From Ignavibacteriales bacterium (GTDB lineage Bacteria; Bacteroidota; Ignavibacteria; UBA10030; UBA6906): DNA of 64,000 bases. The stretch covers positions 226,447 to 290,446 of the forward strand of contig JBBIRR010000001.1 of NCBI GenBank assembly GCA_037441705.1, in the 5' to 3' direction. Below, piece by piece: positions 1 through 31,513 of the stretch (its first letter is position 1; each line of letters opens with the position of its first letter). Below the pieces are notes generated by a model. It saw only the letters and a list, made by a program, of their open reading frames with translations, was not told the DNA's origin and made no database searches. The translations under genes and the position numbers were made by a program.

Positions 1-1853
1 AGCAGCTCAAAGAGATTCACCAGCGCGTCGACCGGATGATGAAGGAGAAGGCCGATCTCTTCTGGAACGACCTCCATCCAAAACTCGCAGCAAGCGGCAT
101 ACACCTTCTCACCATGAAGGAGTGCACGTCCGAGGAACGCGCCCGTCTGACAGAGTTTTTTGCAAAGGAAATCTTTCCCGTCCTCACGCCGCTGGCGTTC
201 GACCCCGGCCATCCGTTCCCGTATATCTCGAACCTGAGTTTGAGTCTCGCCGTTGTGGTGCGCAGCCCGAAGGGTGAGGAACGTTTTGCGCGCGTGAAGG
301 TGCCCGATGTGCTGCCGCGCCTTGTGGCGATTCCGGGCAGCGACGCGGGGACGTTCCGCTTCGTCTGGCTGGAAGAGTTGATTCGTGAGAACCTCGGCAT
401 GCTGTTCCCCGGCATGGCGGTGACGGAATCGTATGCGTTTCAGGTAACGCGCAACGCGGACATCGAGATTCAGGAAGATGAAGCCGAGGACCTCATCCGC
501 TCGATCGAAGAGTCCATCAAGATGCGGCGGTTCGGTTCCGTGGTACGCCTGCTCGTGGAAAATACCATGCCGCAACGGATTATTGACGTCCTCGCGGAGA
601 ATCTCGAGATCACACCGGACGACGTGTACCACTTTCGTCCACCGCTCGGTCTCAGTCATCTCATGCAGCTGCTGAAACTGCCGCGCCCCGACTTGAAGGA
701 CCCACCGTATCACCCTGCAATGCTCTTCAGCGACGACGAGGGCGAGGATATCTTCGGTCTCATCAGGCGAGGCGACATCGTGTTGCATCATCCGTACGAC
801 TCGTTCGCTCCGATCGTCCAATTCATCAAAGCCGCCGCGCACGACCCGAATGTTCTTGCCATCAAACAGACACTCTACCGTATCGGAAAAGAATCGCCTC
901 TGGTTCCGCTTCTGATTCAGGCTGCCGAAAGCGGCAAGCAGGTCGCCGTGTTGGTGGAGTTGAAAGCCCGCTTCGACGAAGAGAACAACATCGGCTGGGC
1001 AAAGAAATTAGAACGCGCCGGCATTCATGTCGTCTACGGATTGGTGGGATTGAAAACGCATGCGAAGGTCGCTCTCGTTGTTCGGAAGGAAGCAGACGGC
1101 CTGCGGCGCTACGTGCATCTCGGCACCGGCAACTACAATCCGGATACCGCACGCATCTATACCGACATCAGCTACCTGACCTGCAAGGAAGATATCGCCG
1201 CCGATGCTTCGGAGGTGTTCAACTTCCTCACGGGGTTCTCCAACAAGCAGGAGTTTCAGAAACTGGTCGTCGCGCCGCTGAACCTGCGCACGCGCCTCAC
1301 GCAGCTCATCGAGCGGGAAATTCAACACGCCCGCAGCGGCAAGCCCGCACACATCATGCTCAAGATGAATGCCCTCACCGACATCAAAATGATCGAGATG
1401 CTCTACGAAGCGTCGAAAGCGAAAGTCAAGATCGACATGATCGTCCGGGGAATCTGCTCTCTGCGGCCCGGCGTCAAGGGCGTGAGCGAGAACATTCGCG
1501 TGATCAGTATTGTGGGGAGATTTCTCGAACACAGCCGCGTGTTCTATTTCTCGAACGATGGCCGGCCGGAACTCTACTGCAGCAGCGCCGACCTGATGGG
1601 TCGCAATCTTGACCGACGCGTGGAACTGATGTTCCCGATTGAAGACCCGGTGTGGGCCGCATTCGTCAAACGCGAGACGCTTGATGCAGCATGGGAAGAC
1701 ACGGTGGGCGCGCGAATGCTTACCGCCAACGGCACATACGCGCGTGTGCAGCCTGCAAACGGCAGAGAGCCATTTGAGATGCAGGCGTTCCTCATGCACA
1801 CGCGCCTGAAACAAGAACCGAAGAAAGCAGTGCCGCGTGAAGTGCCCGGGTAG
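1..1853 (+). CDS. ppk: Polyphosphate kinase 1 (PPK1), 5' end truncated by the window edge
   Basis: The reading frame is open from position 3, so the start lies upstream of the window. The 605 aa fragment shows PPK1 hallmarks, including the PLD-like C1/C2 region (HAKVALVVR...YVHLGTGNYN). Its length is consistent with a ~700 aa PPK1 missing its N-terminus. Confidence 0.85.
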   Translation, partial: QLKEIHQRVDRMMKEKADLFWNDLHPKLAASGIHLLTMKECTSEERARLTEFFAKEIFPVLTPLAFDPGHPFPYISNLSLSLAVVVRSPKGEERFARVKVPDVLPRLVAIPGSDAGTFRFVWLEELIRENLGMLFPGMAVTESYAFQVTRNADIEIQEDEAEDLIRSIEESIKMRRFGSVVRLLVENTMPQRIIDVLAENLEITPDDVYHFRPPLGLSHLMQLLKLPRPDLKDPPYHPAMLFSDDEGEDIFGLIRRGDIVLHHPYDSFAPIVQFIKAAAHDPNVLAIKQTLYRIGKESPLVPLLIQAAESGKQVAVLVELKARFDEENNIGWAKKLERAGIHVVYGLVGLKTHAKVALVVRKEADGLRRYVHLGTGNYNPDTARIYTDISYLTCKEDIAADASEVFNFLTGFSNKQEFQKLVVAPLNLRTRLTQLIEREIQHARSGKPAHIMLKMNALTDIKMIEMLYEASKAKVKIDMIVRGICSLRPGVKGVSENIRVISIVGRFLEHSRVFYFSNDGRPELYCSSADLMGRNLDRRVELMFPIEDPVWAAFVKRETLDAAWEDTVGARMLTANGTYARVQPANGREPFEMQAFLMHTRLKQEPKKAVPREVPG

Positions 1854-2322: not shown

Positions 2323-4782
2323 TCAGCGCAGCAGAACCATTTTTCTTGTCTCCGAAAAACTGCCGGACTGAACTCGGTAGAGGTACACACCCGTCGCCAG
2401 CGTACCGCCCATCGCATTCTTTGCGTCAAACACGATTTCGTACTTTCCCGCTGTCTTCCACTCGTCAACAAGCGTCGCCACCTCCTGACCCGTAATGTTG
2501 TACACCTTCAGTGTCACACGACCGTCCGCGGGAATGGCGTAGCGAATCGTCGTGGAAGGGTTGAACGGATTGGGATAGTTCTGCTCGAGCATGTACTTCG
2601 TCGGGATGGTAGCAAGGGGTTGCGGATTGAACCCAACGCCGACCTCCTTGATCCACAGTTGCGTGACGATGGCCGAGCCTTCGCCAAGACTGTTGATCGC
2701 GATGGTCACGTCCCCATTGGCATGTACCTCTTGGGGGAGACGGCGAAAGCCTGTTGCTGCGGGTGTTGGACCAACGGTCATCGGCTCGCCAAGGCGGACA
2801 CCGTTGGCGGTCAATTCTTGAAGCCGCCGCACGCCGTCTCCTGCGGCGAACTCTGCGGCAACTTCGTACTCGCCGGTCGGCTTCAGTCTCGTGAAGCGAT
2901 ACTGCACCGACGATGCGTGCTCGTTCGCTGTCTGCGATGGAGTGTTGCCCCATCGGACAGCGCTTCCCTGAACGAGATGGGCATCGTCCGTCCGGTGCTC
3001 GCTGCCGCAATCTTCGTGGTAATACAACGGCAGCGTGAAGCGGGTGTTGGAAAACAGAGGCTCGCCGCTGTAGGCAGAGGCCGCCCCGAGTTCGTAGCGG
3101 TAGGTGCCGGCGGACACCTGCGTACCGTCGTCGCCCCGTCGATCCCATAGCAGGCGCTTCTCTCCGGCATTCATCCACGACGAGGTCAGGGTGCGGACGA
3201 GCCTATTCTGTTCATCGTAAATCCGGGCTGTTACGCTGGCAACATCGGTCAGCACGAAGCGGCATGCGACCGTGCTGACATCGGCATCGGCCTGGAACTC
3301 GATCGCCTTCATTTTCACGCCGAGCTTTCTTCGCTGCGCCCCGCTCGCGTCGTCCCACCGCTCCACCGCAAACACCTGATCGAACCCGGTCCAGTAGTTT
3401 CCCTCTCCCTCAATCACAACCTTCGCAAACGGAATGTCGATATGACCGAGTCCCGCGTACGTCTCGTCTCCACCTTCGATGTCCAACAGATCGAGCGTCG
3501 GCGTGAACTTCAGAATCTGCGACCTCACACTTTCAACCACATAGACCTGCCCGAAGTGATCCGTCTTGAGTGACGTGAAGTACTGACGGAAATTGCCCCG
3601 GTACTCACGAACAAGCGTGAGGGACGTTCCTTCGTCGGCAAAGACACGGATGCGGTTTGCAAGCTTATCCACGACGTAGAGCAGCGCATTGTTCGCGCCG
3701 TTCCATCGGCCGACCGCGATGGAGCTTGGTGTTGAGAAGCCTTCAAAACTTGCCACAAGGGAATTGCGCAGCGTACCGGCCGTGTATTTGAGAATCTTGT
3801 TCTCCACACCATCAGCCACATAGAGAAGATCATCCTGCGTATCGAAGGGCGTACCGTTATCATTGATAGCGAGGTCGGTCGGGTTCGTCACGGTATAGAT
3901 CTGATGACGATGCTGCAGCTCGATGTTATCGCCCGTGCCGACCAACTTCAGGACGACGATGCGTTTGTTTGCCGGCTGTCCGACGAACACGTTTCCGTCA
4001 GCATCAACCGCGATGCATGAAGGTCCTTGAAGAGGATAGGCTTTGATCCAGCGATCCATGTTTCCGTAGAGGATGCGGTCCCATTCGGGATCGAGAACAA
4101 GTTGAATGTAGGTTGCCGAGATCAGCCTGCGCCCGCTTGCATAGCGAAGGGAGATGAACGAGGCGGTGTGTTCGGGCAAGCCGAACAGGACACGATCGAG
4201 ACGCGAGCGTGCAATGCGCTCCGTCAGCCGTCCGATGCCGTGTTCGCGGCTCACAGCGACCGGAATGAACGTTTCGCCGACGGAGACGCCACCGCCGACA
4301 GTTTGAGGCGAGGGCGCGCCGGTGACGGCAGCCGTGCTCCATTCGGCGGGGAGAGAGCCGCCGGCAATCGTCCAGCGCCCTCCTACCTTTTCGAAGAGGA
4401 GTCGCTCGCCCGAGGCAAACTCAGCCGATGCCGCGCTCCCCTGAACCCTTACGCGGCATCGTTGAAAATCGGCGGCAGGCAATGCCGTTGCCGGTGCGTG
4501 CGCTCCTGTGGACAACGCATCACCTGCCTGCCTGCTCAGCACGGCCTGGACGTGCTGAGGATCTGCAAAGAAGAAGGGCACGTGTTTTCGCTCGACCGCA
4601 CTCGTGCCACCACCATTGGCCCGCAGCTTATCCACGATAAGCTGAATCTCCGCCTCATCGGAAACACGTGCCCAGTGTGCCCCCAACCGCTCCGGCGTGC
4701 TCGGCTCGCCCCCGCGAATTGTGCTGCACACACTCACGCTCATCACCATCACCGCACACAACTGTGTCGTCTTCATACTCAT
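2323..4782 (-). CDS. Secreted NHL-repeat beta-propeller protein with T9SS C-terminal sorting domain
   Basis: N-terminal signal peptide. Repeated NHL-like blades (NVFVGQPANKRIVVL, LLYVADGVENKILKY, LLYVVDKLANRIRVF, QVYVVESVRSQILKF). The C-terminus carries the canonical Por_Secre_tail (LEQNYPNPFNPSTTIRYAIP...GVYLYRVQSGSFSETRKMVLLR). Confidence 0.75.
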   Translation of the reverse strand: MSMKTTQLCAVMVMSVSVCSTIRGGEPSTPERLGAHWARVSDEAEIQLIVDKLRANGGGTSAVERKHVPFFFADPQHVQAVLSRQAGDALSTGAHAPATALPAADFQRCRVRVQGSAASAEFASGERLLFEKVGGRWTIAGGSLPAEWSTAAVTGAPSPQTVGGGVSVGETFIPVAVSREHGIGRLTERIARSRLDRVLFGLPEHTASFISLRYASGRRLISATYIQLVLDPEWDRILYGNMDRWIKAYPLQGPSCIAVDADGNVFVGQPANKRIVVLKLVGTGDNIELQHRHQIYTVTNPTDLAINDNGTPFDTQDDLLYVADGVENKILKYTAGTLRNSLVASFEGFSTPSSIAVGRWNGANNALLYVVDKLANRIRVFADEGTSLTLVREYRGNFRQYFTSLKTDHFGQVYVVESVRSQILKFTPTLDLLDIEGGDETYAGLGHIDIPFAKVVIEGEGNYWTGFDQVFAVERWDDASGAQRRKLGVKMKAIEFQADADVSTVACRFVLTDVASVTARIYDEQNRLVRTLTSSWMNAGEKRLLWDRRGDDGTQVSAGTYRYELGAASAYSGEPLFSNTRFTLPLYYHEDCGSEHRTDDAHLVQGSAVRWGNTPSQTANEHASSVQYRFTRLKPTGEYEVAAEFAAGDGVRRLQELTANGVRLGEPMTVGPTPAATGFRRLPQEVHANGDVTIAINSLGEGSAIVTQLWIKEVGVGFNPQPLATIPTKYMLEQNYPNPFNPSTTIRYAIPADGRVTLKVYNITGQEVATLVDEWKTAGKYEIVFDAKNAMGGTLATGVYLYRVQSGSFSETRKMVLLR

Positions 4783-4790
4783 CTCCCCGA

Positions 4791-5954
4791 TTAGATCGAA
4801 AACTTGATGGATGCCTGTATGATGTTCGCCGAGAAATCCAGATTGTTGAAGTAGCGGAAATACATCACCTCGACCGCTGAACCGTGCAGGAACTCGAAAT
4901 CGGGATTCTCCTTCGCGACGCCGCGCAGCAGGTACGTAAGCGTGAAGCCAAAATTGTTGGATGAGAAAGGCTTCAGCTTATAGTCGGACGTGCGCAAGGC
5001 CGTCGCAAGATCCTGGATGCCCGCATAGCGGTCGCGGTAGAACGATGCCGCCGTTTGTGCATAGTACCGGTAGTCCACCCCGAAAATGAGATCCTGCAGT
5101 ACGTATTTGTTGAACTTGATCTCGCCGGTGTGCGAACGCACATTCCACGAATCAAAGTAATACCGGTAGCTGCCGATGAGCGAAGCTTTGATCGGCACGA
5201 TGAACTGGCTGAGCCTGAGCGCGCCCGCGTGCCGTGTGCGCGACCGGGGATGCTGCTCATCCACCAAGGTGGAAACACCGGCCGCATCGTAGATGCGGAC
5301 CTGACGGTAGGGATCGCTCAGAAAGCCTTTGTGCAGCACGAAATCGTAGCTGAAATCCAGGACGGTATTGGCCGAAAGAATCTGGCTGAGACTCAAGGAG
5401 CCGGTGTAGGTCTTCTTGCGCTGGTTCAGCAGATCGCCGCTCTCCAGAATCTTGCCCACGAAATCGGCGTTGTACTGGCCGCGCAGCGTGAGTGTTGTGT
5501 TCTTCTCATTCAGTTCCTGACTGTACGTGACGACGACTGCGTTCGAGCGATAGTCCACTTCCTGGCTTCTATAGTAATTCACGGCAAAGGTAGCGTTGGC
5601 GCCGATGTCTTGCTGAAGTCCGAGAATAATCTGTCCGCGATTTTTTTCGAACGGCTCGCTTGCGCGACGCTGCGGCCGCGTCGCACCCGTCACGGCAGTC
5701 ACCGGCGGTACCGTCACCTGATCCAGCTCGATATCGAACAACAACAGCGTGCTCTGCAGCAAGCGCTTCGCAAGATTGAAGGACGTCGTAACGACGCTGT
5801 TATCGCCGCTATCGGAGAAGTAATAGGTTGTGAATCCCAGCCCCTCGCCGCCTCCTGCCGCGAACCCGATCGCGGACGGCATGAAGATGGCGAGCAAGAA
5901 CAGGGCAATATGTTTCCGATAGTGTGTCATACACGAGGGCATCGTCGCCATCAT
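4791..5954 (-). CDS. DUF3570-family predicted outer-membrane beta-barrel protein
   Basis: 387 aa with a signal peptide. Amphipathic beta-strand periodicity is rich in Y/F/S/T, and the C-terminal residue is aromatic. It sits immediately downstream of a DUF4266 lipoprotein gene with a 4-bp overlap, which is the conserved DUF4266/DUF3570 pairing. Confidence 0.6.
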   Translation of the reverse strand: MMATMPSCMTHYRKHIALFLLAIFMPSAIGFAAGGGEGLGFTTYYFSDSGDNSVVTTSFNLAKRLLQSTLLLFDIELDQVTVPPVTAVTGATRPQRRASEPFEKNRGQIILGLQQDIGANATFAVNYYRSQEVDYRSNAVVVTYSQELNEKNTTLTLRGQYNADFVGKILESGDLLNQRKKTYTGSLSLSQILSANTVLDFSYDFVLHKGFLSDPYRQVRIYDAAGVSTLVDEQHPRSRTRHAGALRLSQFIVPIKASLIGSYRYYFDSWNVRSHTGEIKFNKYVLQDLIFGVDYRYYAQTAASFYRDRYAGIQDLATALRTSDYKLKPFSSNNFGFTLTYLLRGVAKENPDFEFLHGSAVEVMYFRYFNNLDFSANIIQASIKFSI

Positions 5955-6169
5955 TTTGCACAGCCGCAGCCGCCGCCAATCCCCGCCGCTCCCCCGATGC
6001 TTCCCTCACGCGTGGAGAAGAACTTCTGCTCGAGCGTCTGCTTGGCAAACACATCCGTCCGCTCCATGATCGGGTCACCGAGGTTGGCGCGTTGATACAC
6101 TTTCACGGTTGTACATCCCGCGAGAAAATACAACAGGAGAAGAAGCGCGAAGAGGTGTGTCAGGCGCAT
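5951..6169 (-). CDS. DUF4266-family small lipoprotein
   Basis: 72 aa with lipobox LAGC. A TVKVYQR...DP segment is followed by the characteristic Gly-rich C-terminus ending GGGCGCAK, matching the DUF4266 signature. Confidence 0.7.
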   Translation of the reverse strand: MRLTHLFALLLLLYFLAGCTTVKVYQRANLGDPIMERTDVFAKQTLEQKFFSTREGSIGGAAGIGGGCGCAK

Positions 6170-6178
6170 ACGGTCCTC

Positions 6179-8422
6179 CTATCGGCCGACGGTGTTGGAA
6201 AACTGCGTCCCCATATCCACCCACTCGATGATGGTGAGCAAGTCACGGTTCGCCGGAAGGAACGGATCAATGCGGCCATGTTGATCGCGCGTCCACATCT
6301 GCGTGTGATCGTAGCTCAACGGCCGGTAGTCCCGGTTGCTCGAGTCGTTCAACTGTCGTCCATACAACACCCACAGCAGCGGACTGTGACGCGAGCCGTT
6401 GTGCCCGTGGACGTATTGCATGTCGTTGTTTGTCGCGGTACGATAGCGACCGTTGCGCGTGAGGGTTTCATAGACGGTCGTCGTCATTTCCGTGAACGGA
6501 TTTGGTGGGGGAGTCAAATCCGCCGGTGTGTTTTCCAGACTCAGCCCTCCTGCGGGTGCGGCATTGCTGTGGCAGGTGATGCACCGGCGATCGAACACAT
6601 TCTGCACCGTGTTCGTCCTTCCGGTGCGATAGCGATCGAAGAAGTCCAGCGTATCCGTCCGCGCTGCGGGATGCGCCGTCACCAGTTCCGCGTTGTGAAA
6701 GCCGGATTCGTACGTCGTGCCGCGTGCCCGATTGATCACCTGGTTGTTGGAGGCAATCTGCAGATCGTTAATAATCCGATCGCGATCATGAGAGTCGTGG
6801 CAGCCCGTACAGAGCCGCTTCTCGCCCGGTATCACCTGAATCCACGTGAGCTGGCTGACGAGAAGCATACCGTGCTGGTCGAGCGTCTGCACGTGCAGGG
6901 ATCGGTTCGCAGGCACTTCAATGGAAAAGGAACCGTCCGAACGAATCGCCGCATAGCCGATAATGCGCTGCTTTTCCAGATTGATGTTGCCGATGGCCTG
7001 TCCGCGCTTGGATCCATCGCGAGGCATATCCACCGCTTCCAACACACGCAGGTACTTGGCCTGACCGTTCGAGCCATCGGCGTTCGCGAACGTCGGTGAA
7101 GGACGAATCTGCCCGTCGTTGGGCGCGCGATCGTAGACATTGCCGTCGAAGAACATCCCGGTCGTCGCACCGGAGGAAAGTCCTGCGGCAACATTCGGGT
7201 CCATGGGAATGACCAGCGGGACCCCGCCGGGAATTCTTTCGCGCGGTAGCACGGGCACGGGATCAATCTCGTTATAGTCGGGATCGTTGTAGATGAGCCG
7301 GAGATTGCTGCCGTCTTTCTCCATCACGTAGATGCCGTAGTCGACTTCTTCATTCTGGCCGCCTTGACCGCGAGGAATCGGAGACATCGCCACGAGGATT
7401 TTTTCTTTTCGATCTGCAGATGCATTCCTGTCGATGATCGGATGCGGCGTTTTGTAGAACGCGCTGGTCGCGCGGCCCGTGTTATTAAAGACCACGTCAG
7501 GAGGTGTGATGAACGTGAGGTTGTCATCCGATCGTGAAATGTCAATAATGGCGATGGCACCGCCCTCGAAAGGCGAGTTCCGCTCCATCACCGAACAGAC
7601 CAGCCCGCCATCGGAGAGTTCTCGCGCTTCGACAAATGCCCGGTCGCCGCTTTCGCGCGGCGAGTGATTGCCGTACAGAACGAAGGGCCGCGTACCATCG
7701 GGGTTCATCACAAAGAGAGGAAATTTGTTGGGATTGCCGAGATGTTCCCACCGGCCGTAAATGATCTTGCCGCTGGAGTGAATGATCGGGTTGATATCGT
7801 GACTCTGATTGAATGAAATGCGACGAATGTTGACGAGTCGGCCATCTGCCGCGCGATCGGCTACATGCAGCAGCGGCGACTCGCGTCGCTCATATTCGTC
7901 AACGATTCCGGGCCGGGTTGAGGTAAAAACAATTTGCCCGGTCGGCAGATACGCCGGATCCATATCGTCGCCGGTTGAACCCTCGGTCAGTTGCACAAGA
8001 TTCGTCCCGTCGGCATTCATTTCGTAGATGCGCCAGCGACTGTTGCGGTTCACCTTCATCGAGAAGAGAATTCTTCGGCCGTCGTAGGAAACCTCGGGAT
8101 CAGCGCACGCTCCGTAGTTGCGCGGGTCGCTGACGTTGCGCCTCGTGTATTGTGCGGTCAGGTTCGTCAACTTGCCTTGCGGAGAGATGGGGCTGAGCAA
8201 AAACAGATCGCTGCCCGGATAGTACTCGTCAATATTGCTGCGCATGGGTTCGCTGCGGTTGTCTTCGCGGCTGTTCTCTCGAACAAAGACAATCGCCGCC
8301 TGCCCCGAACGGTCAAGAATGTCATCCGGCGGCGACGAACCGCAGGACGCGAAAATCAGAGCCAGACCTCCGGTGCATAAGGCAGCGTTCATCAGCCGCC
8401 CGAGCCACAGAATTGATCTCAT
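6179..8422 (-). CDS. Lipoprotein with TolB-like PD40 beta-propeller and two CxxCH haem-binding motifs (putative dihaem c-type cytochrome)
   Basis: Lipobox IFASCG. PD40-type repeats (YDGRRILFSMK...RIYEMNADGTNLVQLT; FVMNPDGTRP; YVMEKDGSNLRLIY). Two CxxCH motifs (RLCTGCHDSHD and RRCITCHSNAAPAGGLSLENT); the second matches the PSCyt1-like C-x2-CH...GGL-x-L pattern. Confidence 0.6.
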   Translation of the reverse strand: MRSILWLGRLMNAALCTGGLALIFASCGSSPPDDILDRSGQAAIVFVRENSREDNRSEPMRSNIDEYYPGSDLFLLSPISPQGKLTNLTAQYTRRNVSDPRNYGACADPEVSYDGRRILFSMKVNRNSRWRIYEMNADGTNLVQLTEGSTGDDMDPAYLPTGQIVFTSTRPGIVDEYERRESPLLHVADRAADGRLVNIRRISFNQSHDINPIIHSSGKIIYGRWEHLGNPNKFPLFVMNPDGTRPFVLYGNHSPRESGDRAFVEARELSDGGLVCSVMERNSPFEGGAIAIIDISRSDDNLTFITPPDVVFNNTGRATSAFYKTPHPIIDRNASADRKEKILVAMSPIPRGQGGQNEEVDYGIYVMEKDGSNLRLIYNDPDYNEIDPVPVLPRERIPGGVPLVIPMDPNVAAGLSSGATTGMFFDGNVYDRAPNDGQIRPSPTFANADGSNGQAKYLRVLEAVDMPRDGSKRGQAIGNINLEKQRIIGYAAIRSDGSFSIEVPANRSLHVQTLDQHGMLLVSQLTWIQVIPGEKRLCTGCHDSHDRDRIINDLQIASNNQVINRARGTTYESGFHNAELVTAHPAARTDTLDFFDRYRTGRTNTVQNVFDRRCITCHSNAAPAGGLSLENTPADLTPPPNPFTEMTTTVYETLTRNGRYRTATNNDMQYVHGHNGSRHSPLLWVLYGRQLNDSSNRDYRPLSYDHTQMWTRDQHGRIDPFLPANRDLLTIIEWVDMGTQFSNTVGR

Positions 8423-8457
8423 ACGCTTCTCCCCGATAATGCCGTTCTCGTAGATGA

Positions 8458-9009
8458 TTAGAAATAGAATTGAATGCCGACCGTGAACGCAATGTTGTGT
8501 GAGACAAATGGCTCATCGTTCAGAATCCGCTGTGAGAAGATTTGATCTCGCACATCGTATCGAAAGCCGAACTGATTCCCCCCGAAGGCGCCCTTCAGCG
8601 GAATGCGTTTGCCCAGACCGATCACGCCTGCAAACGTCGACTGCCCTCCCTGGTTGATCCCGGCAACCCCGAGGATCATGAAGGGCACATAGCTGCTGGG
8701 AAACGGATCGAACCCTGCAACAAACTCATACGTGTACAATCGCTCACTCTCAAACAGCTGAGATCGCGTAACGCTCGAGAGAACATTGGAGCGCAAGCTG
8801 CCAAGGCCGAATGTGCCTTCGACAAAAAATTTCCCTCCTGAAACAAAGTAGTTATACCGAGCAGCGTAGTGAGGATTGGTCCCGAAACCGCTTGCCGCGT
8901 ACGCACCCACAGAGAGACTAATGCTGTTGGAATAGGGCATCTGTGCATAGGAAGGAATCGCAGCGACCGTAGTAAGCACAAGCAGCAAGCTCCATGTGTG
9001 TACACGCAT
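8458..9009 (-). CDS. Small outer-membrane beta-barrel protein (OmpW/porin-like)
   Basis: 183 aa with a signal peptide (LLLVLTTVAAIPSYAQ). Alternating hydrophobic beta-strands. C-terminal ...GIQFYF with a terminal Phe. Confidence 0.6.
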   Translation of the reverse strand: MRVHTWSLLLVLTTVAAIPSYAQMPYSNSISLSVGAYAASGFGTNPHYAARYNYFVSGGKFFVEGTFGLGSLRSNVLSSVTRSQLFESERLYTYEFVAGFDPFPSSYVPFMILGVAGINQGGQSTFAGVIGLGKRIPLKGAFGGNQFGFRYDVRDQIFSQRILNDEPFVSHNIAFTVGIQFYF

Positions 9010-9025
9010 GTTACACTCCCGTTGG

Positions 9026-9652
9026 TTACCGAATTATGAACGTTGCACCGAGGCTGATTTCCTGAAACAGGACCAACTCGTCCCGCTCATCGCGCGCATT
9101 GGTAATGTTGGTGATGTACTGTTTTGCTTCGATGCGAATGCCGAGCGTCGGTGTGAAGTAGAACCGCGCGCCTGCGCCGAAATTAAATCCGAGCGTTGAT
9201 ACCGTTTCATTGCCGATTGTCGACGTCGGCACCGTGAGCATCAGGCCGACCCCCGCTGCACCGTACGGAATGAGGCGCGAGCGAGTGGAGAGGTTGAGAA
9301 GAGCATTCACGGAAAGAGGATAGAGATTCGCATACGTGCCGATCACCTGCTCACCTGCCAGCTCAAGGTTGAGAGAGCCATAGTTCATCGAAAGGCGCAG
9401 GCCGAACGTGCCGCTCTTTCCCATGAATCCTGTGTGAGGCGAAATCTCGAACGTGACGCCGTCGTTGAGGTTGATGAAGGACGTCTTGGTTTCCGTGCGC
9501 ACTGAATCGTTCTGTTGCGACGCGGCCCTTTCCGGAGTTGAGGCTACAACGAAAGATAGTAGCAAGAGTGAATAAGTAAATCGGATAAATACGGTATATT
9601 CCTTCTTCAAAGGACGCAATGAGACCGCTCCCGCTTTCCGTCTGAATTTCAT
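9026..9652 (-). CDS. Small outer-membrane beta-barrel protein; start codon uncertain
   Basis: 208 aa with an internal hydrophobic signal segment (YSLLLLSFVVAS) and beta-strand periodicity. The long basic N-terminus suggests the true start may be downstream of the annotated Met. It lies 16 bp upstream of the previous barrel gene. Confidence 0.5.
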   Translation of the reverse strand: MKFRRKAGAVSLRPLKKEYTVFIRFTYSLLLLSFVVASTPERAASQQNDSVRTETKTSFINLNDGVTFEISPHTGFMGKSGTFGLRLSMNYGSLNLELAGEQVIGTYANLYPLSVNALLNLSTRSRLIPYGAAGVGLMLTVPTSTIGNETVSTLGFNFGAGARFYFTPTLGIRIEAKQYITNITNARDERDELVLFQEISLGATFIIR

Positions 9653-10106
9653 TGAAAATCACTCGTTTATGTGCCCAATCCTACAACTCTGTGCTGCACA
9701 ATTTACTCAATTCACTGTACCAATCGTTGAGATACAAATATAAACCAATTTATTCATTTGTCAAGCAAAAATTTTCAGATATGCCTCTTATTACCATTTT
9801 TTAATTGATTGAGTCGCATCACCCGAGACAAGTCAGACGTCATGCATGGCGATCGGAACCATCACCTTCTCGCCCCAGTCCGTTTGCAACGTCGCCATCG
9901 GCAGCATCGTCGGTTGCCATGATGTGGCAAATGGCCAACTCTTGAACCAAAGAGGCATGGTATGCACATGAACACGCCGACTCTGTCGGACAAACAACAC
10001 GCACAGCGAAACACACCTTCAAACAAATCCCCGATCTCAGCCTTGTATCTGTGCAATCTTCTTCATAGGTTAATTCCGAAAGTCTTGTTCTTTTCGGAAC
10101 CCTCGC

Positions 10107-10125
10107 AAGAGAGAAACATCTCTCT
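10107..10125. promoter_or_regulatory. Perfect 7-bp inverted repeat (AGAGAGA-AACA-TCTCTCT) about 100 nt upstream of the gltA start codon
   Basis: Read directly from the sequence, inside a 570-bp AT-rich divergent intergenic region at 9653-10223. Confidence 0.4.
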
Positions 10126-10223
10126 GGACTTTCGACACCCACCTGATGCATGAATCCAGCGAGATCCATCTCTTCTGCAGGAGGGTTTACCTCTACACCA
10201 ACGACACGAAAAGGAGAGAGAAC

Positions 10224-11555
<1,332 letters not shown>

Positions 11556-11611
11556 CACTCTCGCGTGGGCCGTCCCGCTACCCGGCGGAGCGGCCCACAG
11601 GTATCCGCGGC

Positions 11612-13570
11612 ATGAAGCGACGGCACAGCGTGGTCTTGCTTGTTGCAATCTTTTTTGAGGTTGCCTTTGCACAGCATGACCTGCACGAGTTGGCCCGAAC
11701 GGAAGCAGAAGCGTACGCGCGGCGATCACGCGTACGGTTCCACACGCAGGACGAGCGCGGTTTCGACGTCACCTCCTACAAACTCGACCTCAACATCACG
11801 GTTGTCCCCGGCTATCTCCGGGGCGTCGTAACGCTGCACGCTCGCAGCACCACCGCGGGGCTGACGGCGATCTCGCTCGACCTCATGAATTCGATGACGG
11901 TTGATTCCGTGATCTGTGCCGGCGCTGCCGCTCGGTTTATCCAGCACCCCACTACCGTGTTCATTGAACTCAACCGAAGTTACGGTTACGGTGAGATGGT
12001 GGTGCTGGATGTGTATTATCGGGGCGTTCCGACCAGCACGGGCTTCGGAAGTTTTGAATTCGGCTCACACCCGGGAGGTCCGTGGGTTTGGACGCTGAGC
12101 GAGCCGTATGGTGCTCGTGACTGGTGGCCGTGCAATGATCATCCTGCCGATAAGGCTGACTCCGTGGATATGCTGGTTACGTGCAGCAGGGATTTCAAGG
12201 TTGCATCGAACGGACGGCTCATTCGCATCACCAGCAATCCGGACAACACGCATACCTACCATTGGGCCGAACGCTACCCGATAGCAACGTACCTCGTTTT
12301 CCTCTCCTTGACCAACTATGCGGAGTTCACCGACTGGTTTCACTACACTCCGACAGACTCCATGCCCATTGTCAACTACATACTTCCCGAACACCTCGCA
12401 GTTGCGCAAGACAGCTTTCGCGTCGTGAGCGATATGTTGAGGATTTATTCGGAGACGTTCGGGCTGTACCCGTTCATCACGGAAAAATACGGCCACGCGC
12501 AATTCGGCAGAGGCGGAGCGATGGAGCACCAGACGATGACCTCGCTTGTGCGGGCAGCGTTCACCCAATCGGCACTCGCACACGAGCTTGCTCATCAATG
12601 GTTCGGCGATCTGATCACATGCGCAAGCTGGCGTCATCTCTGGCTTAACGAAGGCTTCGCGTCGTACGCTGAGGCGCTCTATTACGAAAAGCAGTATGGA
12701 CGCGAACACTATCGCTCGGCTCTTCGCAGTAGCATGGCCATCGCCAAGGCAGCCCGCGGTTCCGTAATCCGACCGGACACGACCGACATCAGCACTTTGT
12801 TCGATCAGGCGGCAGTCTATGCTAAAGGAGCGGCTGTCCTTCACATGCTGCGCTATGTGCTCGGCGATTCGGCGTTTTTCCGCGCTCTGCAAGCCTACAC
12901 ATCCGATGCACGGTTTCGTTACGGAGTTGCAACGACGGAGGATTTCCAGGGTGTGTGTGAAGCAATTGCGCAGCAGCCGCTTGACTGGTTCTTCCAGCAG
13001 TGGTTGTACGGCGAGAACTACCCGCGGTACACGTACACGTGGAACGCCCTCCCCGACACCGATCGACAATGGCGTGTCGACATCACCATCAAACAAACCA
13101 CCGGCACGTCACGTCCAGCGTTCTTCGTGATGCCGCTCGATGTGAAACTATCAGGTTCGACGCGCGACACGACCGTAACGGTGTTCAACACCTACAACGG
13201 TCAAACCTTCAGCCTTCAACTGGAATTTCCGCCGGAGCGGGTGGAACTTGACCCGGAGGAGCGAATCCTGAGGGATGTACTCCCATCAAACGACGGCGAG
13301 CTTCCAACGTCGTTTCGGCTTCTGCAAAACTATCCGAATCCGTTCAACGAGAGTACGACGATCGCTTACGAGATACCAACGCGAACGCATGTTGTTCTCA
13401 CCGTCTACGACGTTCTCGGGCGCCTTGTGGCAACGCTTGTGAATCGCGTCGAGGAACCGGGACATAAAACCGTTCGCTTCGACGCCGCAGACAACGCAAG
13501 CGGTGTGTACTTGTGCAGGCTGCACGCGGCGGGCTTTGCGGCATCGCGCAAGCTTCTCCTTCTCAAATAG
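11612..13570 (+). CDS. M1-family zinc aminopeptidase with T9SS C-terminal sorting domain
   Basis: GAMEH motif and HELAHQWFG...NEGFASY zinc site. Signal peptide from MKRRHSVVLLVAIFF (ATG 11612). C-terminal LLQNYPNPFNESTTIAYEIP...VYLCRLHAAGFAASRKLLLLK Por_Secre_tail. Confidence 0.85.
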   Translation: MKRRHSVVLLVAIFFEVAFAQHDLHELARTEAEAYARRSRVRFHTQDERGFDVTSYKLDLNITVVPGYLRGVVTLHARSTTAGLTAISLDLMNSMTVDSVICAGAAARFIQHPTTVFIELNRSYGYGEMVVLDVYYRGVPTSTGFGSFEFGSHPGGPWVWTLSEPYGARDWWPCNDHPADKADSVDMLVTCSRDFKVASNGRLIRITSNPDNTHTYHWAERYPIATYLVFLSLTNYAEFTDWFHYTPTDSMPIVNYILPEHLAVAQDSFRVVSDMLRIYSETFGLYPFITEKYGHAQFGRGGAMEHQTMTSLVRAAFTQSALAHELAHQWFGDLITCASWRHLWLNEGFASYAEALYYEKQYGREHYRSALRSSMAIAKAARGSVIRPDTTDISTLFDQAAVYAKGAAVLHMLRYVLGDSAFFRALQAYTSDARFRYGVATTEDFQGVCEAIAQQPLDWFFQQWLYGENYPRYTYTWNALPDTDRQWRVDITIKQTTGTSRPAFFVMPLDVKLSGSTRDTTVTVFNTYNGQTFSLQLEFPPERVELDPEERILRDVLPSNDGELPTSFRLLQNYPNPFNESTTIAYEIPTRTHVVLTVYDVLGRLVATLVNRVEEPGHKTVRFDAADNASGVYLCRLHAAGFAASRKLLLLK

Positions 13571-26286: not shown

Positions 26287-28071
26287 CTACAGTCTGTATC
26301 CCCCCATCTCCACCACGTTGTCCGAAATCGAACGGCGAAGGACAAACGTGTTGGTCGGCGTGTGTTTGGTGAGACGCCGGAGCGCGGCCAGCTGTGTACG
26401 CAGGGCGTCGCCTTCAGCGATGGCAGCGAGGACATTCGTCGCGTGATTTGCAACCCGACCGATTGCGTCGTTCACAAACACCTTCACGAGGTCAAGATAA
26501 GTTTGACTCGCAGCCTCACCATGTTTCTCAACTCGTTTCAGCACGCGCAACATGACGCTTTCCATCGCGTAGGTCTCCATCATCATGTCGGTGATGGCCG
26601 CAAGCACCTCCTGCTCATCCTGAATGGCCATCATATATTTCTGCGCAGCGGCACCCAGCATGAGCACCGTGATTTTCTTGGCATTGGTAACAAGCTTCTT
26701 CTCGTCGGCCAGCAGTCCGCCTTCGCCGTTGGCATCGAACGACGGGGTCATGAGTTCATCGAAGAGTTGTTTTGCATACCCGAAGAGATTCAACTCGCCC
26801 TTCGTCGCTCGCTTCAGCACCATGCCGGAAGCAAGCAGACGGTTGATTTCGTTCGTCCCCTCAAAAATCCTGTTGATGCGGGCGTCGCGATAGGCCCTCG
26901 CCATCGGGTACTCTTCGCTGTAGCCGTAGCCGCCGAGAATCTGCACGCCCTCATCCACAACGTAGTCGAGAATCTCGCTGCAATACACCTTCAGCATACC
27001 GCATTCGGCAGCATACTCCTCGATGCTCTTGAGGATCATCTTCGATGCATCGGGAGCCGACGTGTCAACACTGCCGACCAGCGCATCGATCATACCCGCT
27101 GTTCGATACACCATGCTCTCGCCCACGAATGTGCGGATGGCCATCTCGGCAATCTTGTGTTTAATGAGAGGAAACTCGTGCAGCTTCTTGCCGAATTGCT
27201 TTCGCTGATCGGCATACTTCACCGCTTCGGTGATCACATGCTTCGACGCGCCGACAGCGAACGCACCTAACTTGAAGCGACCGATGTTGAGAATGTTGAA
27301 TGCCACGAGATGCCCCTTCCCGATTTCACCGACAACATTCTCGACGGGTATTCGAGCATTATCTAACAGCAGTTGCCGCGTGGACGAGCCTTTGATGCCC
27401 ATCTTTTTTTCTTCAGCGGCAGTCGACACTCCGGGATACCCTTTTTCGATGATGAAGGCGGTGAACTTATCACCATCCACCTGAGCAAAGGTGATGTACA
27501 CATCCGCAAAGCCGGCGTTGCTCAACCACATCTTTGTGCCGTTCAGAATGTAGTATTTGCCGTCCTCCGTCAGCCGCGCGGTGGTTTTGGCGGAGAGGGC
27601 GTCGGACCCTGAGCCGGGTTCGGAGAGAGAGTAAGAGGAGATCAGCTCCGCGGTAGCAAACTTCGGCAGGTACTTCGCTTTCTGCTCGGGCGTGCCGAAG
27701 TAGACAATCGGCAGCGTGCCGATACCGGCGTGCGCGCCGTGGCTCACGGCCCACGCACCCGTGGGGCCGATCTTTTCGGCGACGATCATCGAGCTGGTTT
27801 TATCCAGACCGAGACCGCCGTACTCTTCCGGGATGTCAATGGCGTTCAGTCCCAGCTCGCCCGCTTTACGCAAGAGCGCAACATTCAGCTCGTGCTTCAT
27901 TTCATCGATCTCATGCACGTACGGCATCACTTCGCCGTTGACGAAGTCTTCCGTCGTCTTCGCAATCATCTGATGCGTCTCGGTGAAATCTTCCGGTGTG
28001 AAGATTTCGTGCGGCGTGAACTCGCGGAGAAGAAACTCGCCGCCTTTGGTGTAGGTCGTTTCTGTTACCAT
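26287..28071 (-). CDS. Acyl-CoA dehydrogenase, long form with C-terminal extension
   Basis: Start at MVTETTY (ATG 28071); the upstream 62 codons are Arg-rich noise. ACAD N-terminal, middle and C-terminal domains (YGGYGYSEEYPMARAYRDARINRIFEGTNEINRL), followed by a ~150 aa extension seen in FadE-like enzymes. Confidence 0.85.
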   Translation of the reverse strand: MVTETTYTKGGEFLLREFTPHEIFTPEDFTETHQMIAKTTEDFVNGEVMPYVHEIDEMKHELNVALLRKAGELGLNAIDIPEEYGGLGLDKTSSMIVAEKIGPTGAWAVSHGAHAGIGTLPIVYFGTPEQKAKYLPKFATAELISSYSLSEPGSGSDALSAKTTARLTEDGKYYILNGTKMWLSNAGFADVYITFAQVDGDKFTAFIIEKGYPGVSTAAEEKKMGIKGSSTRQLLLDNARIPVENVVGEIGKGHLVAFNILNIGRFKLGAFAVGASKHVITEAVKYADQRKQFGKKLHEFPLIKHKIAEMAIRTFVGESMVYRTAGMIDALVGSVDTSAPDASKMILKSIEEYAAECGMLKVYCSEILDYVVDEGVQILGGYGYSEEYPMARAYRDARINRIFEGTNEINRLLASGMVLKRATKGELNLFGYAKQLFDELMTPSFDANGEGGLLADEKKLVTNAKKITVLMLGAAAQKYMMAIQDEQEVLAAITDMMMETYAMESVMLRVLKRVEKHGEAASQTYLDLVKVFVNDAIGRVANHATNVLAAIAEGDALRTQLAALRRLTKHTPTNTFVLRRSISDNVVEMGGYRL

Positions 28072-28093
28072 AGGGTGACTCCTTTTCGTTTCG

Positions 28094-28555
28094 TCAATCT
28101 GAATGGATGTCCTCCACTGAGGAGTGAGCGCTCTGATGTTCAAATGCCAGAATCTTCTTTCGCAGCGTCTCGGGAACGGGAATCGCCATCTTCTTCTCGT
28201 AGTCGTATGTGACCTGCACCGTCGAGCCTTCGGCAACCAGCTGCCCCGTTCCTGCATTTTCGATTCGATATTCCATGCGAAAACTCCGTGTGCCGAACTC
28301 CGATACCCGCACGAACACTTTCAGTTCCTCAGCGGCATGCACGGGCGCCTTGAACGTGACGGTTGCCTGGGCAAGAATGAACGGAAGCTGACGCGCAGCC
28401 TCCGTCATGTCAATCTTGAAGAGGTTGAGGTAGTACATCATCCTTGCCTCTTCGAAGTACGTGAGGTACGTTGCGTTGTTCACATGCCCCATCGCATCCA
28501 TGTCCGCAAAGCGAACGGGGATGGTGACGGAGAATTTGAAGTCGGAGTTGCGCAA
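28094..28555 (-). CDS. Acyl-CoA thioesterase, 4HBT/hotdog fold (YbgC-like)
   Basis: VRFADMDAMGHVNNATYLTYFEEAR signature. The start codon appears to be non-ATG (TTG). Confidence 0.8.
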   Translation of the reverse strand: MRNSDFKFSVTIPVRFADMDAMGHVNNATYLTYFEEARMMYYLNLFKIDMTEAARQLPFILAQATVTFKAPVHAAEELKVFVRVSEFGTRSFRMEYRIENAGTGQLVAEGSTVQVTYDYEKKMAIPVPETLRKKILAFEHQSAHSSVEDIHSD

Positions 28556-28559
28556 AGGG

Positions 28560-28634
28560 ATTTGAGATTTTGGATTTGGGATTTTGGATTTTGGATTCTG
28601 GATTATGGATGTTGGATTCTTGGCCTTGGGTTCA
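28560..28634. repeat. Imperfect tandem heptamer array, about 10 copies of GATTTTG (minus-strand reading AATCCAA), in the thiolase-thioesterase spacer
   Basis: Direct reading: GGATTTGAGATTTTGGATTTGGGATTTTGGATTTTGGATTCTGGATTATGGATGTTGGATTCTTGG. The array ends at the thiolase stop codon and stops 4 nt before the thioesterase start. Confidence 0.8.
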
Positions 28635-29840
28635 GTTGATGAATTCGAAAATCCCTGCGGCGCCCATGCCGCCGCCTACACACATGGTTACCATGCCGTA
28701 CTTTGCTTTACGGCGGCGCGCTTCGTTGAGAATCTGGACGGTCAACTTCGCGCCGGTGCACCCGAGAGGATGACCAAGCGCAATGGCGCCGCCGTTGACG
28801 TTGACCCGTTCTTCATCCATCTCCATATGTTTGATGACGTAATACGCTTGCGATGCAAATGCTTCGTTCAACTCGATCAGATCAATCCGGTCGAGCGTAA
28901 GTCCGGCATTCTTCAACGCCTTCGGGATTGCTTTCACGGGGCCGATGCCCATCTCGTCGGGATGCACGCCGCCGAGGGCAAAGGTCACAAACCGCGCCAG
29001 AGGCTTGAGGCCGAGCATTTCCATCTTCCGCTTTGACATGACGATGACAGCCGCTGCGCCGTCGCTGGTTTGCGAGGAGTTTCCCGCCGTAACCGTGGCC
29101 GTCGGTTCCACGGAAAAGACCGGTTTGAGTGCGGCGAGTTTCTCCATGGTCGTATCGGGACGAGGGCCTTCGTCTGTATCAAAGATGATTTCTTTCGTCC
29201 GCTTCTTGCCGTTCTCGTCAATTGTCTTCTCAACGACTTTCAGGGGAACGATTTCCTCCTTGAATTTTCCGGCGTTGATTGCGGCCACAGCCCGTTGATG
29301 ACTGCGCAGCGACCATCGATCCTGCATCTCTCTCGTGATGTTGTAGCGCTTCGCCACGTTCTCGGCAGTCAGTCCCATGCTGAGATAGATATCCGGGAGG
29401 TGATCAACCATGTAGGGGTTTGCGGCGACTTTATTGCCTCCCATCGGCACCATGCTCATGCTCTCGGCGCCCCCGGCAATAATAACATCCGCGTTGCCGC
29501 ACATGATGCGCTCGCTGGCAAATGCAATGGACTGTAATCCCGACGAGCAGAAGCGATTGATGGTGGTTGCAGGAACCTCCACGGGCAGCCCCGCACGCAG
29601 AGCAGCAATCCGGGCGAAGTTCATTCCCTGCTCGCCTTCGGGAAAGGCGCAACCGATAATCACATCATCGATTTCTTTCGAGTCGAGCTGCGGGGTTCGT
29701 TTCAACAACTCAGCAATCACGGCCGCAGCCATGTCGTCGGGGCGTGTGTTACGCAGTGTCCCCTTGTTGGCTTTGCCAACCGCGGTGCGGACGGCACAGA
29801 CGATATGGGCTTCTGTCATGTATCTTCCTTTCTCATTCAC
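28632..29840 (-). CDS. Acetyl-CoA C-acyltransferase (3-ketoacyl-CoA thiolase)
   Basis: Thiolase active-site regions ([13 protein letters not shown]; [20 protein letters not shown]; [16 protein letters not shown]). Confidence 0.9.
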
Positions 29841-29846
29841 GCATGA

Positions 29847-30695: not shown

Positions 30696-30699
30696 TGTA

Positions 30700-31317: not shown

Positions 31318-31330
31318 AACTTGTGAGTCG

Positions 31331-31513
31331 TCAGCCTTTTTTCTCACTTGCTGCTTCGGTCGAATACGAAGCACTCAAATCGCGCACTGTTGTCTCAGTC
31401 TTCTTGAGAATGTAATCGATGCGCTCTTCTGGCCGCACTCTTGCCAGCTCGGAGGATACGGTCTCTTTCCAATCCCACACCTCGAGCTGCGCTTTAGATG
31501 TCTTCGGTTCCAT
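31331..31513 (-). CDS. Small hypothetical protein (60 aa) overlapping the 3' end of the PIN gene by 20 nt
   Basis: ORF only, no recognisable domain. Its position suggests a possible partner of the PIN protein. Confidence 0.3.
   Translation of the reverse strand: MEPKTSKAQLEVWDWKETVSSELARVRPEERIDYILKKTETTVRDLSASYSTEAASEKKG

Follow-up and report, generated by a model that had tools for sequence, protein, structure and literature searches.

Introduction

DUF3570 and DUF4266 are protein families found in described flavinylation systems. Meheust, Light et al. (eLife 2021) demonstrated experimentally that DUF3570 of Chlorobium luteolum is flavinylated by ApbE at two [S/T]GA[S/T] motifs (PMC8238504). 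The published clusters encode ApbE, DUF3570, a PF13899 thioredoxin-like protein and DUF4266, with or without DsbD, and were labeled a hybrid thioredoxin-like/flavinylation extracytosolic electron-transfer system of uncertain function; 25 DUF3570 clusters contain the VIT1 iron transporter, and a role in iron assimilation was suggested (PMC8238504). The main text of that study names neither an HZS-like cytochrome nor an outer-membrane location (PMC8238504). Here, we describe a six-gene operon (g1 to g6, Table 1) in which members of both families accompany a homologue of hydrazine synthase alpha (HZS-alpha). It lies in a stretch of 64,000 nucleotides (hereafter, the window) from Ignavibacteriales bacterium, contig JBBIRR010000001.1 of assembly GCA_037441705.1, positions 226,447 to 290,446.

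Hydrazine synthase (HZS) is known from bacteria that perform anaerobic ammonium oxidation (anammox). HZS-like proteins outside anammox bacteria have been reported in clades of Planctomycetota and Desulfobacterota beside beta-gamma homologues, with no function assigned (PMC10732223, PMC12758564), and they have been proposed to form a broad family with alternative substrates (PMC10732223). For the non-anammox homologues, Hagglund et al. (2025) reported that the tyrosine haem ligand and the functional residues are missing and that the haem pocket is canonical (PMC12758564). In a passing remark, Haft noted TlpA/DUF4266/DUF3570 neighborhoods in Thioalkalivibrio, near the JDVT-CTERM signal. In the parts of the literature accessible to us that name DUF3570, DUF4266, PF12094 or PF14086, no passage ties these families to HZS_alpha. 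What is new in the present analysis is a DUF3570/DUF4266 flavinylation-associated module that has an HZS-alpha-like dihaem lipoprotein and small outer-membrane (OM) barrels as constant partners. The operon probably moves electrons outside the cytoplasm.

The dihaem lipoprotein g3

The product of g3 matched the Pfam family HZS_alpha (PF18582) with an E-value of 3e-20 and 73 bits, compared with a gathering threshold of 26.6, and residues 453-543 covered positions 1-98 of the 98-position profile. The sole PDB sequence match found with phmmer was 5c2v_A (1.1e-15), in three stretches corresponding to the propeller, the haem-I motif and the C-terminal haem-II domain. The AlphaFold2 model of g3 (predicted local distance difference test score, pLDDT, 88.7; predicted template-modeling score, pTM, 0.86) likewise had 5c2v_A as its best Foldseek match in the PDB, along the whole chain (E 6.5e-36, template-modeling (TM) scores 0.67/0.65, 19% identity), and the next matches were TolB structures, aligned over the propeller only. 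The modeled architecture consists of an N-terminal TolB-like beta-propeller, the HZS_alpha middle domain and a C-terminal haem domain. Judging from sequence and model together, g3 is a full-length homologue of HZS-alpha. An initial annotation of the window had described this protein as a PD40 dihaem lipoprotein, and the PD40 match (3.7e-6, Pfam), the two CXXCH motifs and the lipobox agree with that description; however, the HZS-alpha identity had been missed, and the PSCyt1 score (0.0049) was under the cutoff.

Signal peptides, lipoboxes and CXXCH motifs were read directly off the sequence. In an alignment of 67 homologues, residues C538, T539, C541 and H542 of the first haem motif of g3 and C614, C617 and H618 of the second were invariant, and HMMER paired the two motifs with CSGCH and CAMCH of 5c2v_A, respectively. 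The family pattern at the haem-I motif is CTGCH[DG]x[HR]x. Tyr591 of HZS, the proximal ligand of haem alpha-I, aligned with Asp546 of g3 (+4 after the motif histidine), a position that varies in the family. H715, which aligned with the likely distal His772 of HZS, was not conserved, and H706 was invariant. On inspection, no lipoprotein export signal was recognizable after Cys27.

Against the NCBIfam equivalog model for hydrazine synthase alpha (NF052339), g3 scored 126.3 bits in three stretches, compared with a cutoff of 800. No beta-gamma (CCP/MauG-like) partner of g3 was found in the operon, in the scanned open reading frames (ORFs) of the window or in related clusters, and no nitrogen-cycle or anammox genes were found among the window ORFs searched. 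Because no beta-gamma partner was found in these searches and Tyr591 is not conserved, we regard g3 as an HZS-alpha homologue and not as a hydrazine synthase; the latter assignment was rejected.

The DUF4266 lipoprotein and the DUF3570 barrel

The short g4 product matched Pfam DUF4266 (PF14086) with an E-value of 1.2e-13 and 52.2 bits (threshold 27). It has the lipobox LAGC followed by approximately 50 mature residues that end in a glycine-rich tail, and both the lipobox and the C-terminal pattern, GGGCGC[AST]K or GGGCGCN, were invariant in approximately 80 orthologues. The g5 product matched DUF3570 (PF12094) with an E-value of 1.6e-38 and 133.1 bits (threshold 25); it carries an N-terminal signal peptide and was modeled as an OM beta-barrel of approximately 16 strands. 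The stop codon of g4 and the start codon of g5 share a 4-bp ATGA, by which the two genes are, to all appearances, translationally coupled. This coupling suggests a stoichiometric lipoprotein-barrel pair.

The tetrapeptide TGAT of g5 fits [ST]GA[ST], the motif at which flavin mononucleotide (FMN) is attached to DUF3570 (PMC8238504). Residues T89, G90, A91, R93, P94 and R96 were invariant in 65 homologues, and a TGAT-type motif was present in nearly all orthologues of the Fibrobacteres-Chlorobi-Bacteroidetes (FCB) group. A second conserved [ST]GA[ST] motif was not found in the g5 family, whereas the C. luteolum protein has two. Residues 86-92 had low confidence in the model, and both this and the conservation of the PPVTAVTGATRPQRR loop fit a flexible modification site. 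From strand parity and loop lengths in the model, the loop would lie on the extracellular or lumenal side, together with the other long loops.

Conservation of the gene cluster

The g3 family yielded 710 matches in a word-indexed search, and 347 representatives were recovered at E ≤ 1e-30 among 1.84 billion 50%-identity cluster representatives. One genome per species was scanned, which gave 295 loci with a g3 relative; the best 80 of these 295 and five metagenomic loci (L001-L005) together formed the 85 loci analyzed, whose six-frame ORFs were searched with the window proteins. Downstream genes were counted wherever 5 kb or more of sequence followed the g3 homologue (53 loci), and upstream genes wherever the upstream flank was long enough (72 loci).

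DUF4266 and DUF3570 followed the g3 homologue in 53/53 loci. A TlpA/ResA-type thioredoxin gene lay between g3 and DUF4266 in 39 of the 53, and a g6 homologue came directly after DUF3570 in 26 of the 53, exclusively in the Ignavibacteria/Bacteroidota-labeled/Calditrichia group. Homologues of g1 and g2 were present upstream of the g3 homologue in 60/72 and 61/72 loci, respectively. The carriers were labeled Ignavibacteria, 'Chlorobi', Bacteroidota, Calditrichia, Fibrobacteria and Reichenbachiella. In Gammaproteobacteria (Thioalkalivibrio, Ectothiorhodospiraceae and Halothiobacillaceae), we found the same parts at 31-37% identity and in a slightly different order: an HZS-alpha-like protein, a small protein, two OM barrels, TlpA, DUF4266 and DUF3570. 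The HZS-alpha-like protein of this clade is an N-terminal lipoprotein of approximately 1000 aa with three CXXCH motifs. When a gammaproteobacterial DUF3570 was used as the query in a second, independent search, 3535 matches were returned; four of these DUF3570 homologues were taken from long contigs, and all (4/4) sat in HZS_alpha-OMP-OMP-TlpA-DUF4266-DUF3570 clusters.

In the clade of the window DUF3570 and in a large gammaproteobacterial clade, DUF3570 is thus constantly accompanied by the HZS-alpha-like cytochrome and by two small OM barrels. The initial annotation had treated the cytochrome as a departure from the usual neighbors of DUF4266/DUF3570, a view that the 53/53 and 4/4 loci contradict. 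It had also called the DUF4266/DUF3570 pair a conserved module of unknown function; the conservation holds in all 53 loci, but 'unknown function' is too strong for a family whose flavinylation by ApbE has been shown (PMC8238504). Since the synteny recurs, with gene order kept, in dozens of genomes from several phyla, the chance juxtaposition that the annotation had left open can be excluded.

Several variations of the cluster were observed. The only exception to the arrangement was a contig of a Fibrobacteria metagenome-assembled genome (L045, 12197-14802), in which g1-g2-g3 are followed by a different, 427-aa lipoprotein-like ORF, with no thioredoxin, DUF4266 or DUF3570 gene after g3 in a sequence free of Ns. 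Twenty-five FCB-group loci (among them L010, L013, L017-L019, L024, L026 and L038) have, immediately before g1, a third small barrel-like gene of approximately 190-240 aa with no Pfam match; only two small barrel genes are present in the window and its closest relatives. The gammaproteobacterial clusters encode a conserved protein of approximately 173 aa right after the HZS-alpha-like gene (L066 12898-13419; L080 12543-13331), for which no Pfam or NCBIfam match was found; the L080 copy, with its CSASGCH (CX4CH-like) motif, could be an additional small cytochrome. A further conserved block is located downstream of these gammaproteobacterial clusters and encodes a protein of approximately 171-232 aa and two or three large tetratricopeptide repeat (TPR) proteins (L087 11525-19155; L066 16612-21771; L078 17159-19111), to which L087 adds ExbB and two ExbD genes. 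A JDVT-CTERM signal on the gammaproteobacterial g3 homologue was also considered and rejected: there was no NCBIfam match, the C-terminus has neither a transmembrane segment nor an Arg cluster, and a pattern scan was negative.

Thioredoxin, ApbE and DsbD

The thioredoxin encoded by the relatives is a Redoxin/AhpC-TSA protein of the ResA/TlpA/DsbE type. Thioredoxins of this type act as periplasmic reductants, and the family serves cytochrome c and CuA maturation. No DsbD was found among the Pfam-annotated neighbors in the relatives. ApbE (PF02424, 1e-78 to 1e-85) was encoded in or near 10/85 loci: directly upstream of the HZS-alpha-like gene and on the same strand in eight gammaproteobacterial loci, and within a few kb in two FCB-group loci. 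In L087, ApbE comes immediately after DUF3570. Because ApbE adjoins the cluster in relatives, the cytochrome cluster and the flavinylation machinery can be regarded as one system.

In the window, no ApbE, thioredoxin or DsbD gene was found by Pfam annotation of approximately 45 ORFs or by phmmer searches of the six-frame ORFs with ApbE and thioredoxin queries. A thioredoxin gene is absent from the window operon and from those most closely related to it (L006-L009, L012 and others), and only 9 bp separate g3 from g4 in the window. This absence is an unusual trait of the window operon; the lineage has lost its in-cluster thioredoxin. The thioredoxin and ApbE of this genome must be encoded elsewhere.

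A proposed electron-transfer module

The conserved core of the cluster consists of a g3-type cytochrome, two small OM barrels, a CGC-tailed DUF4266 lipoprotein and a DUF3570 barrel with an FMN motif. Its accessories are the TlpA/ResA-type thioredoxin in most relatives, ApbE in some, and an NHL propeller protein secreted by the type IX secretion system (T9SS) in lineages of the Ignavibacteria/Calditrichia group. We propose that the operon encodes a thiol-to-flavin-to-haem extracytosolic electron-transfer module, and we would assign this reading a probability of approximately 50%. It retains, as the best reading, the cell-envelope redox complex suggested earlier. In the proposed chain, reducing equivalents would pass from a periplasmic thiol system (a TlpA-type thioredoxin and ultimately CcdA/DsbD) to the CGC dithiol in the flexible tail of DUF4266, and from there to a covalent FMN on the DUF3570 barrel. 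The FMN would turn two-electron thiol chemistry into one-electron steps and deliver electrons to the two haems of the HZS-alpha-like lipoprotein g3, whose propeller/haem-I pocket might be the site at which a small substrate or metal is reduced, or oxidized if the flow is reversed. Conversion from two-electron to one-electron transfer between dithiols and haems is usually the task of a flavin, and this is why the flavin can be given a clear role between the CXC motif and the cytochrome. We infer that the proteins form a complex, and likewise the sequence and direction of electron transfer, the localization and the substrate.

Several points weigh against this proposal. The haem on g3 and the flavin on g5 are predicted loadings. 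The FMN loop is predicted to be extracellular or lumenal, while ApbE, TlpA and probably g3 would be periplasmic. Since the search of the window ORFs found no thioredoxin-like or ApbE gene, the proposed chain lacks two of its links locally, and the TlpA-like protein of the relatives could be a mere maturation factor for the CXXCH sites of the cytochrome. In many gammaproteobacterial DUF3570 proteins, S or A replaces G in the motif, and not every member of the family may therefore be flavinylated. The proposal also does not account for what g1, g2 and g6 do.

A stronger and more specific form of the same proposal is a trans-outer-membrane conduit, comparable to porin-cytochrome systems such as MtrCAB but based on flavin. 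Here, DUF3570 would serve as an OM flavoprotein whose FMN loop lies within the lumen or at the cell surface, and the CGC tail of DUF4266 would be threaded into the barrel as a plug. In this hitherto unrecognized kind of conduit, electrons would run from thiol to covalent FMN to haem across the envelope and feed a surface or periplasmic HZS-alpha-like enzyme; in the surface version, they would reach an exposed g3 and the T9SS-displayed g6. By the canonical rule for OM proteins, the long loop that contains the FMN motif, being on the same barrel face as the other long loops, would be extracellular; the sorting domain of g6 marks it as destined for the surface, g4 and g5 are translationally coupled, and lipoproteins of Bacteroidota-type bacteria are often surface-exposed. 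However, the core occurs without g6 in Gammaproteobacteria and Fibrobacteria, gammaproteobacterial lipoproteins normally face the periplasm, and g3 has no recognizable export signal after Cys27. Moreover, the placement of the loop comes from topology rules only, and one flavin makes a thin wire across a barrel. We therefore put the conduit forward tentatively, as rather improbable. If it were true, the large orphan HZS_alpha family outside anammox would supply the terminal oxidoreductases of an alternative to porin-cytochrome systems that relies on flavin and is poor in cytochromes. The thioredoxin of the ResA/DsbE/TlpA type also raises the possibility of a module for maturation or quality control, in which thioredoxin, DUF4266 and DUF3570 would assemble or repair the cytochrome or envelope proteins, for example by keeping CXXCH cysteines reduced or by repairing oxidative damage, with no chain to a substrate. 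The cluster without a thioredoxin gene in the window clade is compatible with such an accessory role, but a dedicated OM barrel with a flavinylation motif and a CXC lipoprotein are hard to square with the maturation of a single cytochrome, and the co-localization of ApbE points to a working flavin cofactor; we consider this explanation improbable.

The same genes could also act on metals or nitrogen compounds. In the former case, the substrate that the module reduces at the envelope would be Fe(III) or a different metal, in the service of uptake or homeostasis, as the 25 DUF3570 clusters with VIT1 might suggest (PMC8238504). In one Fibrobacteria-type locus (L002, 14149-19682), the cluster abuts genes for PepSY_TM, a TonB-dependent receptor and TonB-ExbBD on the opposite strand, although this adjacency with PepSY and the receptor was seen in only 1/85 loci; in Gammaproteobacteria, genes for TPR proteins and ExbB/ExbD come after the cluster, but the ExbBD genes are over 7 kb downstream and may form an operon of their own. 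No iron-uptake gene adjoins the operon in the window, where the nearest TonB-dependent receptor gene is 9 kb away, past unrelated genes. No Fur-box-like element was seen, although no search aimed at one was made, and we regard a role in iron reduction or acquisition as unlikely. In the latter case, g3 would bind or convert NO, NH2OH or NH3 at haem I, and the flavin/thiol module would be only its electron supply. This idea draws on the full-length homology of g3 to HZS-alpha, including the haem alpha-I middle domain, and on the alternative substrates proposed for the HZS-like family (PMC10732223). It fits poorly with the score of 126 bits against an equivalog cutoff of 800, with the replacement of Tyr591 by the unconserved Asp546, as in other non-anammox homologues (PMC12758564), and with the lack of a beta-gamma partner in the window or cluster and of nitrogen-cycle genes among the window ORFs searched, and we consider it very unlikely.

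The small barrels g1 and g2 and the T9SS cargo g6

The g1 product has a signal peptide and matched Pfam OMP_b-brl (PF13505) with an E-value of 5.6e-10 and 40.1 bits, over the cutoff. The g2 product, which has a signal peptide and a C-terminus of ...QFYF, matched the NCBIfam OM beta-barrel domain TIGR04565 at 5.7e-10, under the cutoff; its gammaproteobacterial counterpart clears this cutoff at 133 bits. We also considered that g1 and g2 might be recent duplicates, but they are not close paralogues, and this idea was rejected.

The g6 product has an N-terminal signal peptide and comprises, in order, a variable N-terminal region, an NHL propeller, a FlgD_ig domain, a further conserved region and the sorting domain, and it is conserved from approximately residue 170 onward. 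The propeller (six blades, approximately residues 250-480) matches Pizza/PknD structures (2.8e-10), and FlgD_ig was detected at residues 503-568 (9.6e-18). The sorting domain matched TIGR04183 (3.8e-10, 39.6 bits versus 23) and Por_Secre_tail (PF18962; 1.3e-6, 29 bits versus 27). A search of g6 for redox motifs found no conserved Cys and a single conserved His, and g6 is therefore not an obvious redox protein. Two more T9SS type-A cargos, both with Por_Secre_tail, are encoded in the window: an M1 peptidase (11450-13570, plus strand) and a CarboxypepD_reg/He_PIG protein (61763-63835, plus strand). Given these two further cargos, we conclude that the organism uses type IX secretion.

Operon layout and promoter

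The junctions between the six genes consist of gaps of 16, 35, 9 and 8 bp and the one 4-bp overlap of g4 with g5. GGAG/AGGAGG Shine-Dalgarno-like sequences precede g2, g3, g4 and g6. Upstream of g1 is a non-coding spacer of approximately 570 bp with a GC content of 45-49%, compared with approximately 57% in the genes; a divergent citrate synthase gene lies at its far end, and a convergent polyphosphate kinase 1 gene (ppk1) lies downstream of g6. A scan for sigma-70-type promoters identified one element in the spacer, approximately 85 nt upstream of the g1 start codon and preceded by an A/T-rich stretch; it is also compatible with a Bacteroidota-type TAnnTTTG -7 element. This element, TTGCTTGACAAA...TTATATTTG, is kept nearly base for base in the orthologous operons of L006, L007, L008, L009 and L012, whose proteins are 70-92% identical to those of the window. 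The single promoter, the tight junctions and the ribosome-binding-site-like sequences support an operon, and from this layout the six genes are presumably co-transcribed. A GAGTAAA element recurs downstream of the promoter in the 5' leader of g1 (window 9653-9736) and in the leaders of L006-L009 and L012; in the window leader it does not represent an alternative start, because in-frame stops come after it. No Rfam family (riboswitch or small RNA) and no tRNA was found in the upstream region or in the rest of the window.

Most of what the initial annotation had stated about the locus was confirmed. Its coordinates for six minus-strand genes joined by a 4-bp overlap or by gaps of 8-35 bp proved exact, with a single overlap, and the 570-bp AT-rich upstream region that it took for a promoter region contains the element in Table 1. 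Its prediction that every product is extracytoplasmic agrees with the signal peptides on four proteins and the lipoboxes on g3 and g4. The profile searches reported above bear out the assignments to DUF4266 and DUF3570, the T9SS-sorted NHL propeller protein and the two OM barrels, with g2 under the cutoff.

Table 1. Genes, protein motifs and promoter of the operon, with positions in the window
Feature	Position	Strand	Size or residues	Description
g1	9652-9026	minus	208 aa	Small outer-membrane beta-barrel protein
g2	9009-8458	minus	183 aa	Second small outer-membrane beta-barrel protein
g3	8422-6179	minus	747 aa	Dihaem c-type cytochrome lipoprotein, HZS-alpha homologue
g4	6169-5951	minus	72 aa	DUF4266 small lipoprotein
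g5	5954-4791	minus	387 aa	DUF3570 protein, predicted ~16-strand OM beta-barrel
g6	4782-2323	minus	819 aa	T9SS type-A cargo with NHL propeller
Promoter TTGACA-N16-TATATT(TG)	9764-9737	minus		11/12 consensus match (sigma-70-type scan)
g3 lipobox (IFAS-C)	8342-8344	minus	Cys27	Invariant in 67 aligned homologues
g3 haem motif 1, CTGCH	6797-6811	minus	538-542	Counterpart of HZS-alpha haem alpha-I site
g3 haem motif 2, CITCH	6569-6583	minus	614-618	Counterpart of HZS-alpha haem alpha-II site
g4 C-terminal CGC	5960-5968	minus	C68-G69-C70	Tail end
g5 TGAT	5679-5690	minus	T89-G90-A91-T92	Putative ApbE flavinylation site, loop PPVTAVTGATRPQRR between strands 3 and 4
g6 C-terminal sorting domain	2335-2577	minus	736-816 of 819	TIGR04183/PF18962

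Other genes in the window

Two ppk1 genes are present in the window: one at 36-1853 (plus strand), without PP_kinase_N and probably cut by the window start, and a complete one at 56615-58672 (minus strand). A 629-aa ORF with a GTG start (9840-11729, minus strand) is a shadow ORF of the citrate synthase gene, which runs antisense to it on the plus strand and whose likely start is near 10224, after AGGAGAGAGAAC. Ordinary housekeeping genes occupy 26287-36978 and 51040-54442 (both minus strand), namely a fatty-acid beta-oxidation block (acyl-CoA dehydrogenase, thiolase, short-chain dehydrogenase/reductase, 3-hydroxyacyl-CoA dehydrogenase/enoyl-CoA hydratase and acyl-CoA ligase) and a succinate dehydrogenase/fumarate reductase block.

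Discussion

The operon joins two orphan problems, namely the hundreds of HZS-alpha homologues outside anammox and the purpose of the flavinylated DUF3570/DUF4266 system. Every locus with sufficient flanking sequence, in FCB-group bacteria and Gammaproteobacteria alike, links the two, and DUF3570 is a predicted OM barrel; both families thereby gain a concrete and testable context, that of a thiol/flavin/haem redox module at the outer membrane. Thioalkalivibrio is a cultured carrier of the cluster and offers a route to such tests. For the annotation of metagenomes, HZS_alpha matches in Ignavibacteria, Calditrichia, Fibrobacteria and sulfur-oxidizing Gammaproteobacteria should not be taken as a sign of anammox potential.

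In comparison with HzsA of anammox bacteria (kuste2861, PDB 5C2V chain A), g3 has the same three domains, that is, a propeller, a middle domain with the haem alpha-I CXXCH and a C-terminal domain with the haem alpha-II CXXCH. However, g3 is a lipoprotein of an Ignavibacteria-like FCB-group bacterium, and its operon has no gene for a beta or gamma subunit. Clades I-IV of Hagglund et al. (Planctomycetota/Desulfobacterota, PMC12758564) resemble g3 in being distant HZS-alpha homologues with a canonical haem pocket that lacks the Tyr ligand, with TM scores of 0.66-0.67 to 5C2V. Those clades are defined by co-located fused beta-gamma homologues, FG-GAP proteins and ABC-transporter substrate-binding proteins (PMC12758564), whereas the g3 clade is co-located with TlpA, DUF4266, DUF3570 and OM barrels, without a beta-gamma homologue.

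The clusters described by Meheust et al. share with the window operon the DUF4266-DUF3570 order, the [ST]GA[ST] motif on DUF3570, the C-terminal CXC of DUF4266 and the extracytosolic products, and they share with its relatives a thioredoxin-fold protein and, in some cases, ApbE. Unlike those clusters, the family of the window operon has the HZS-alpha-like dihaem lipoprotein and two small OM barrels as constant partners, and the thioredoxin of its members is of the Redoxin/AhpC-TSA (TlpA/ResA) type and not of the PF13899 type. In the window itself, no ApbE, thioredoxin or DsbD was found among the ORFs searched, and only one of the two published flavinylation motifs is conserved.

The porin-cytochrome conduits (MtrCAB, PioAB/MtoAB) resemble the operon in that an OM barrel is co-encoded with a c-type cytochrome and a lipoprotein, and the role proposed for the operon is likewise electron transfer in the envelope, a likeness that is functional only and unproven. 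There is no sequence relationship between the two systems, and the operon has neither the MtrB/PioB-family barrel nor the cytochrome with approximately 10 haems by which such conduits are recognized. The barrel of g5 would have approximately 16 strands compared with 26 in the conduits, and the cytochrome g3 is a dihaem protein with a propeller, whereas theirs is a decahaem protein. Where the conduits hold a haem wire inside the barrel, the putative cofactor of the operon would be a covalent FMN together with a dithiol.

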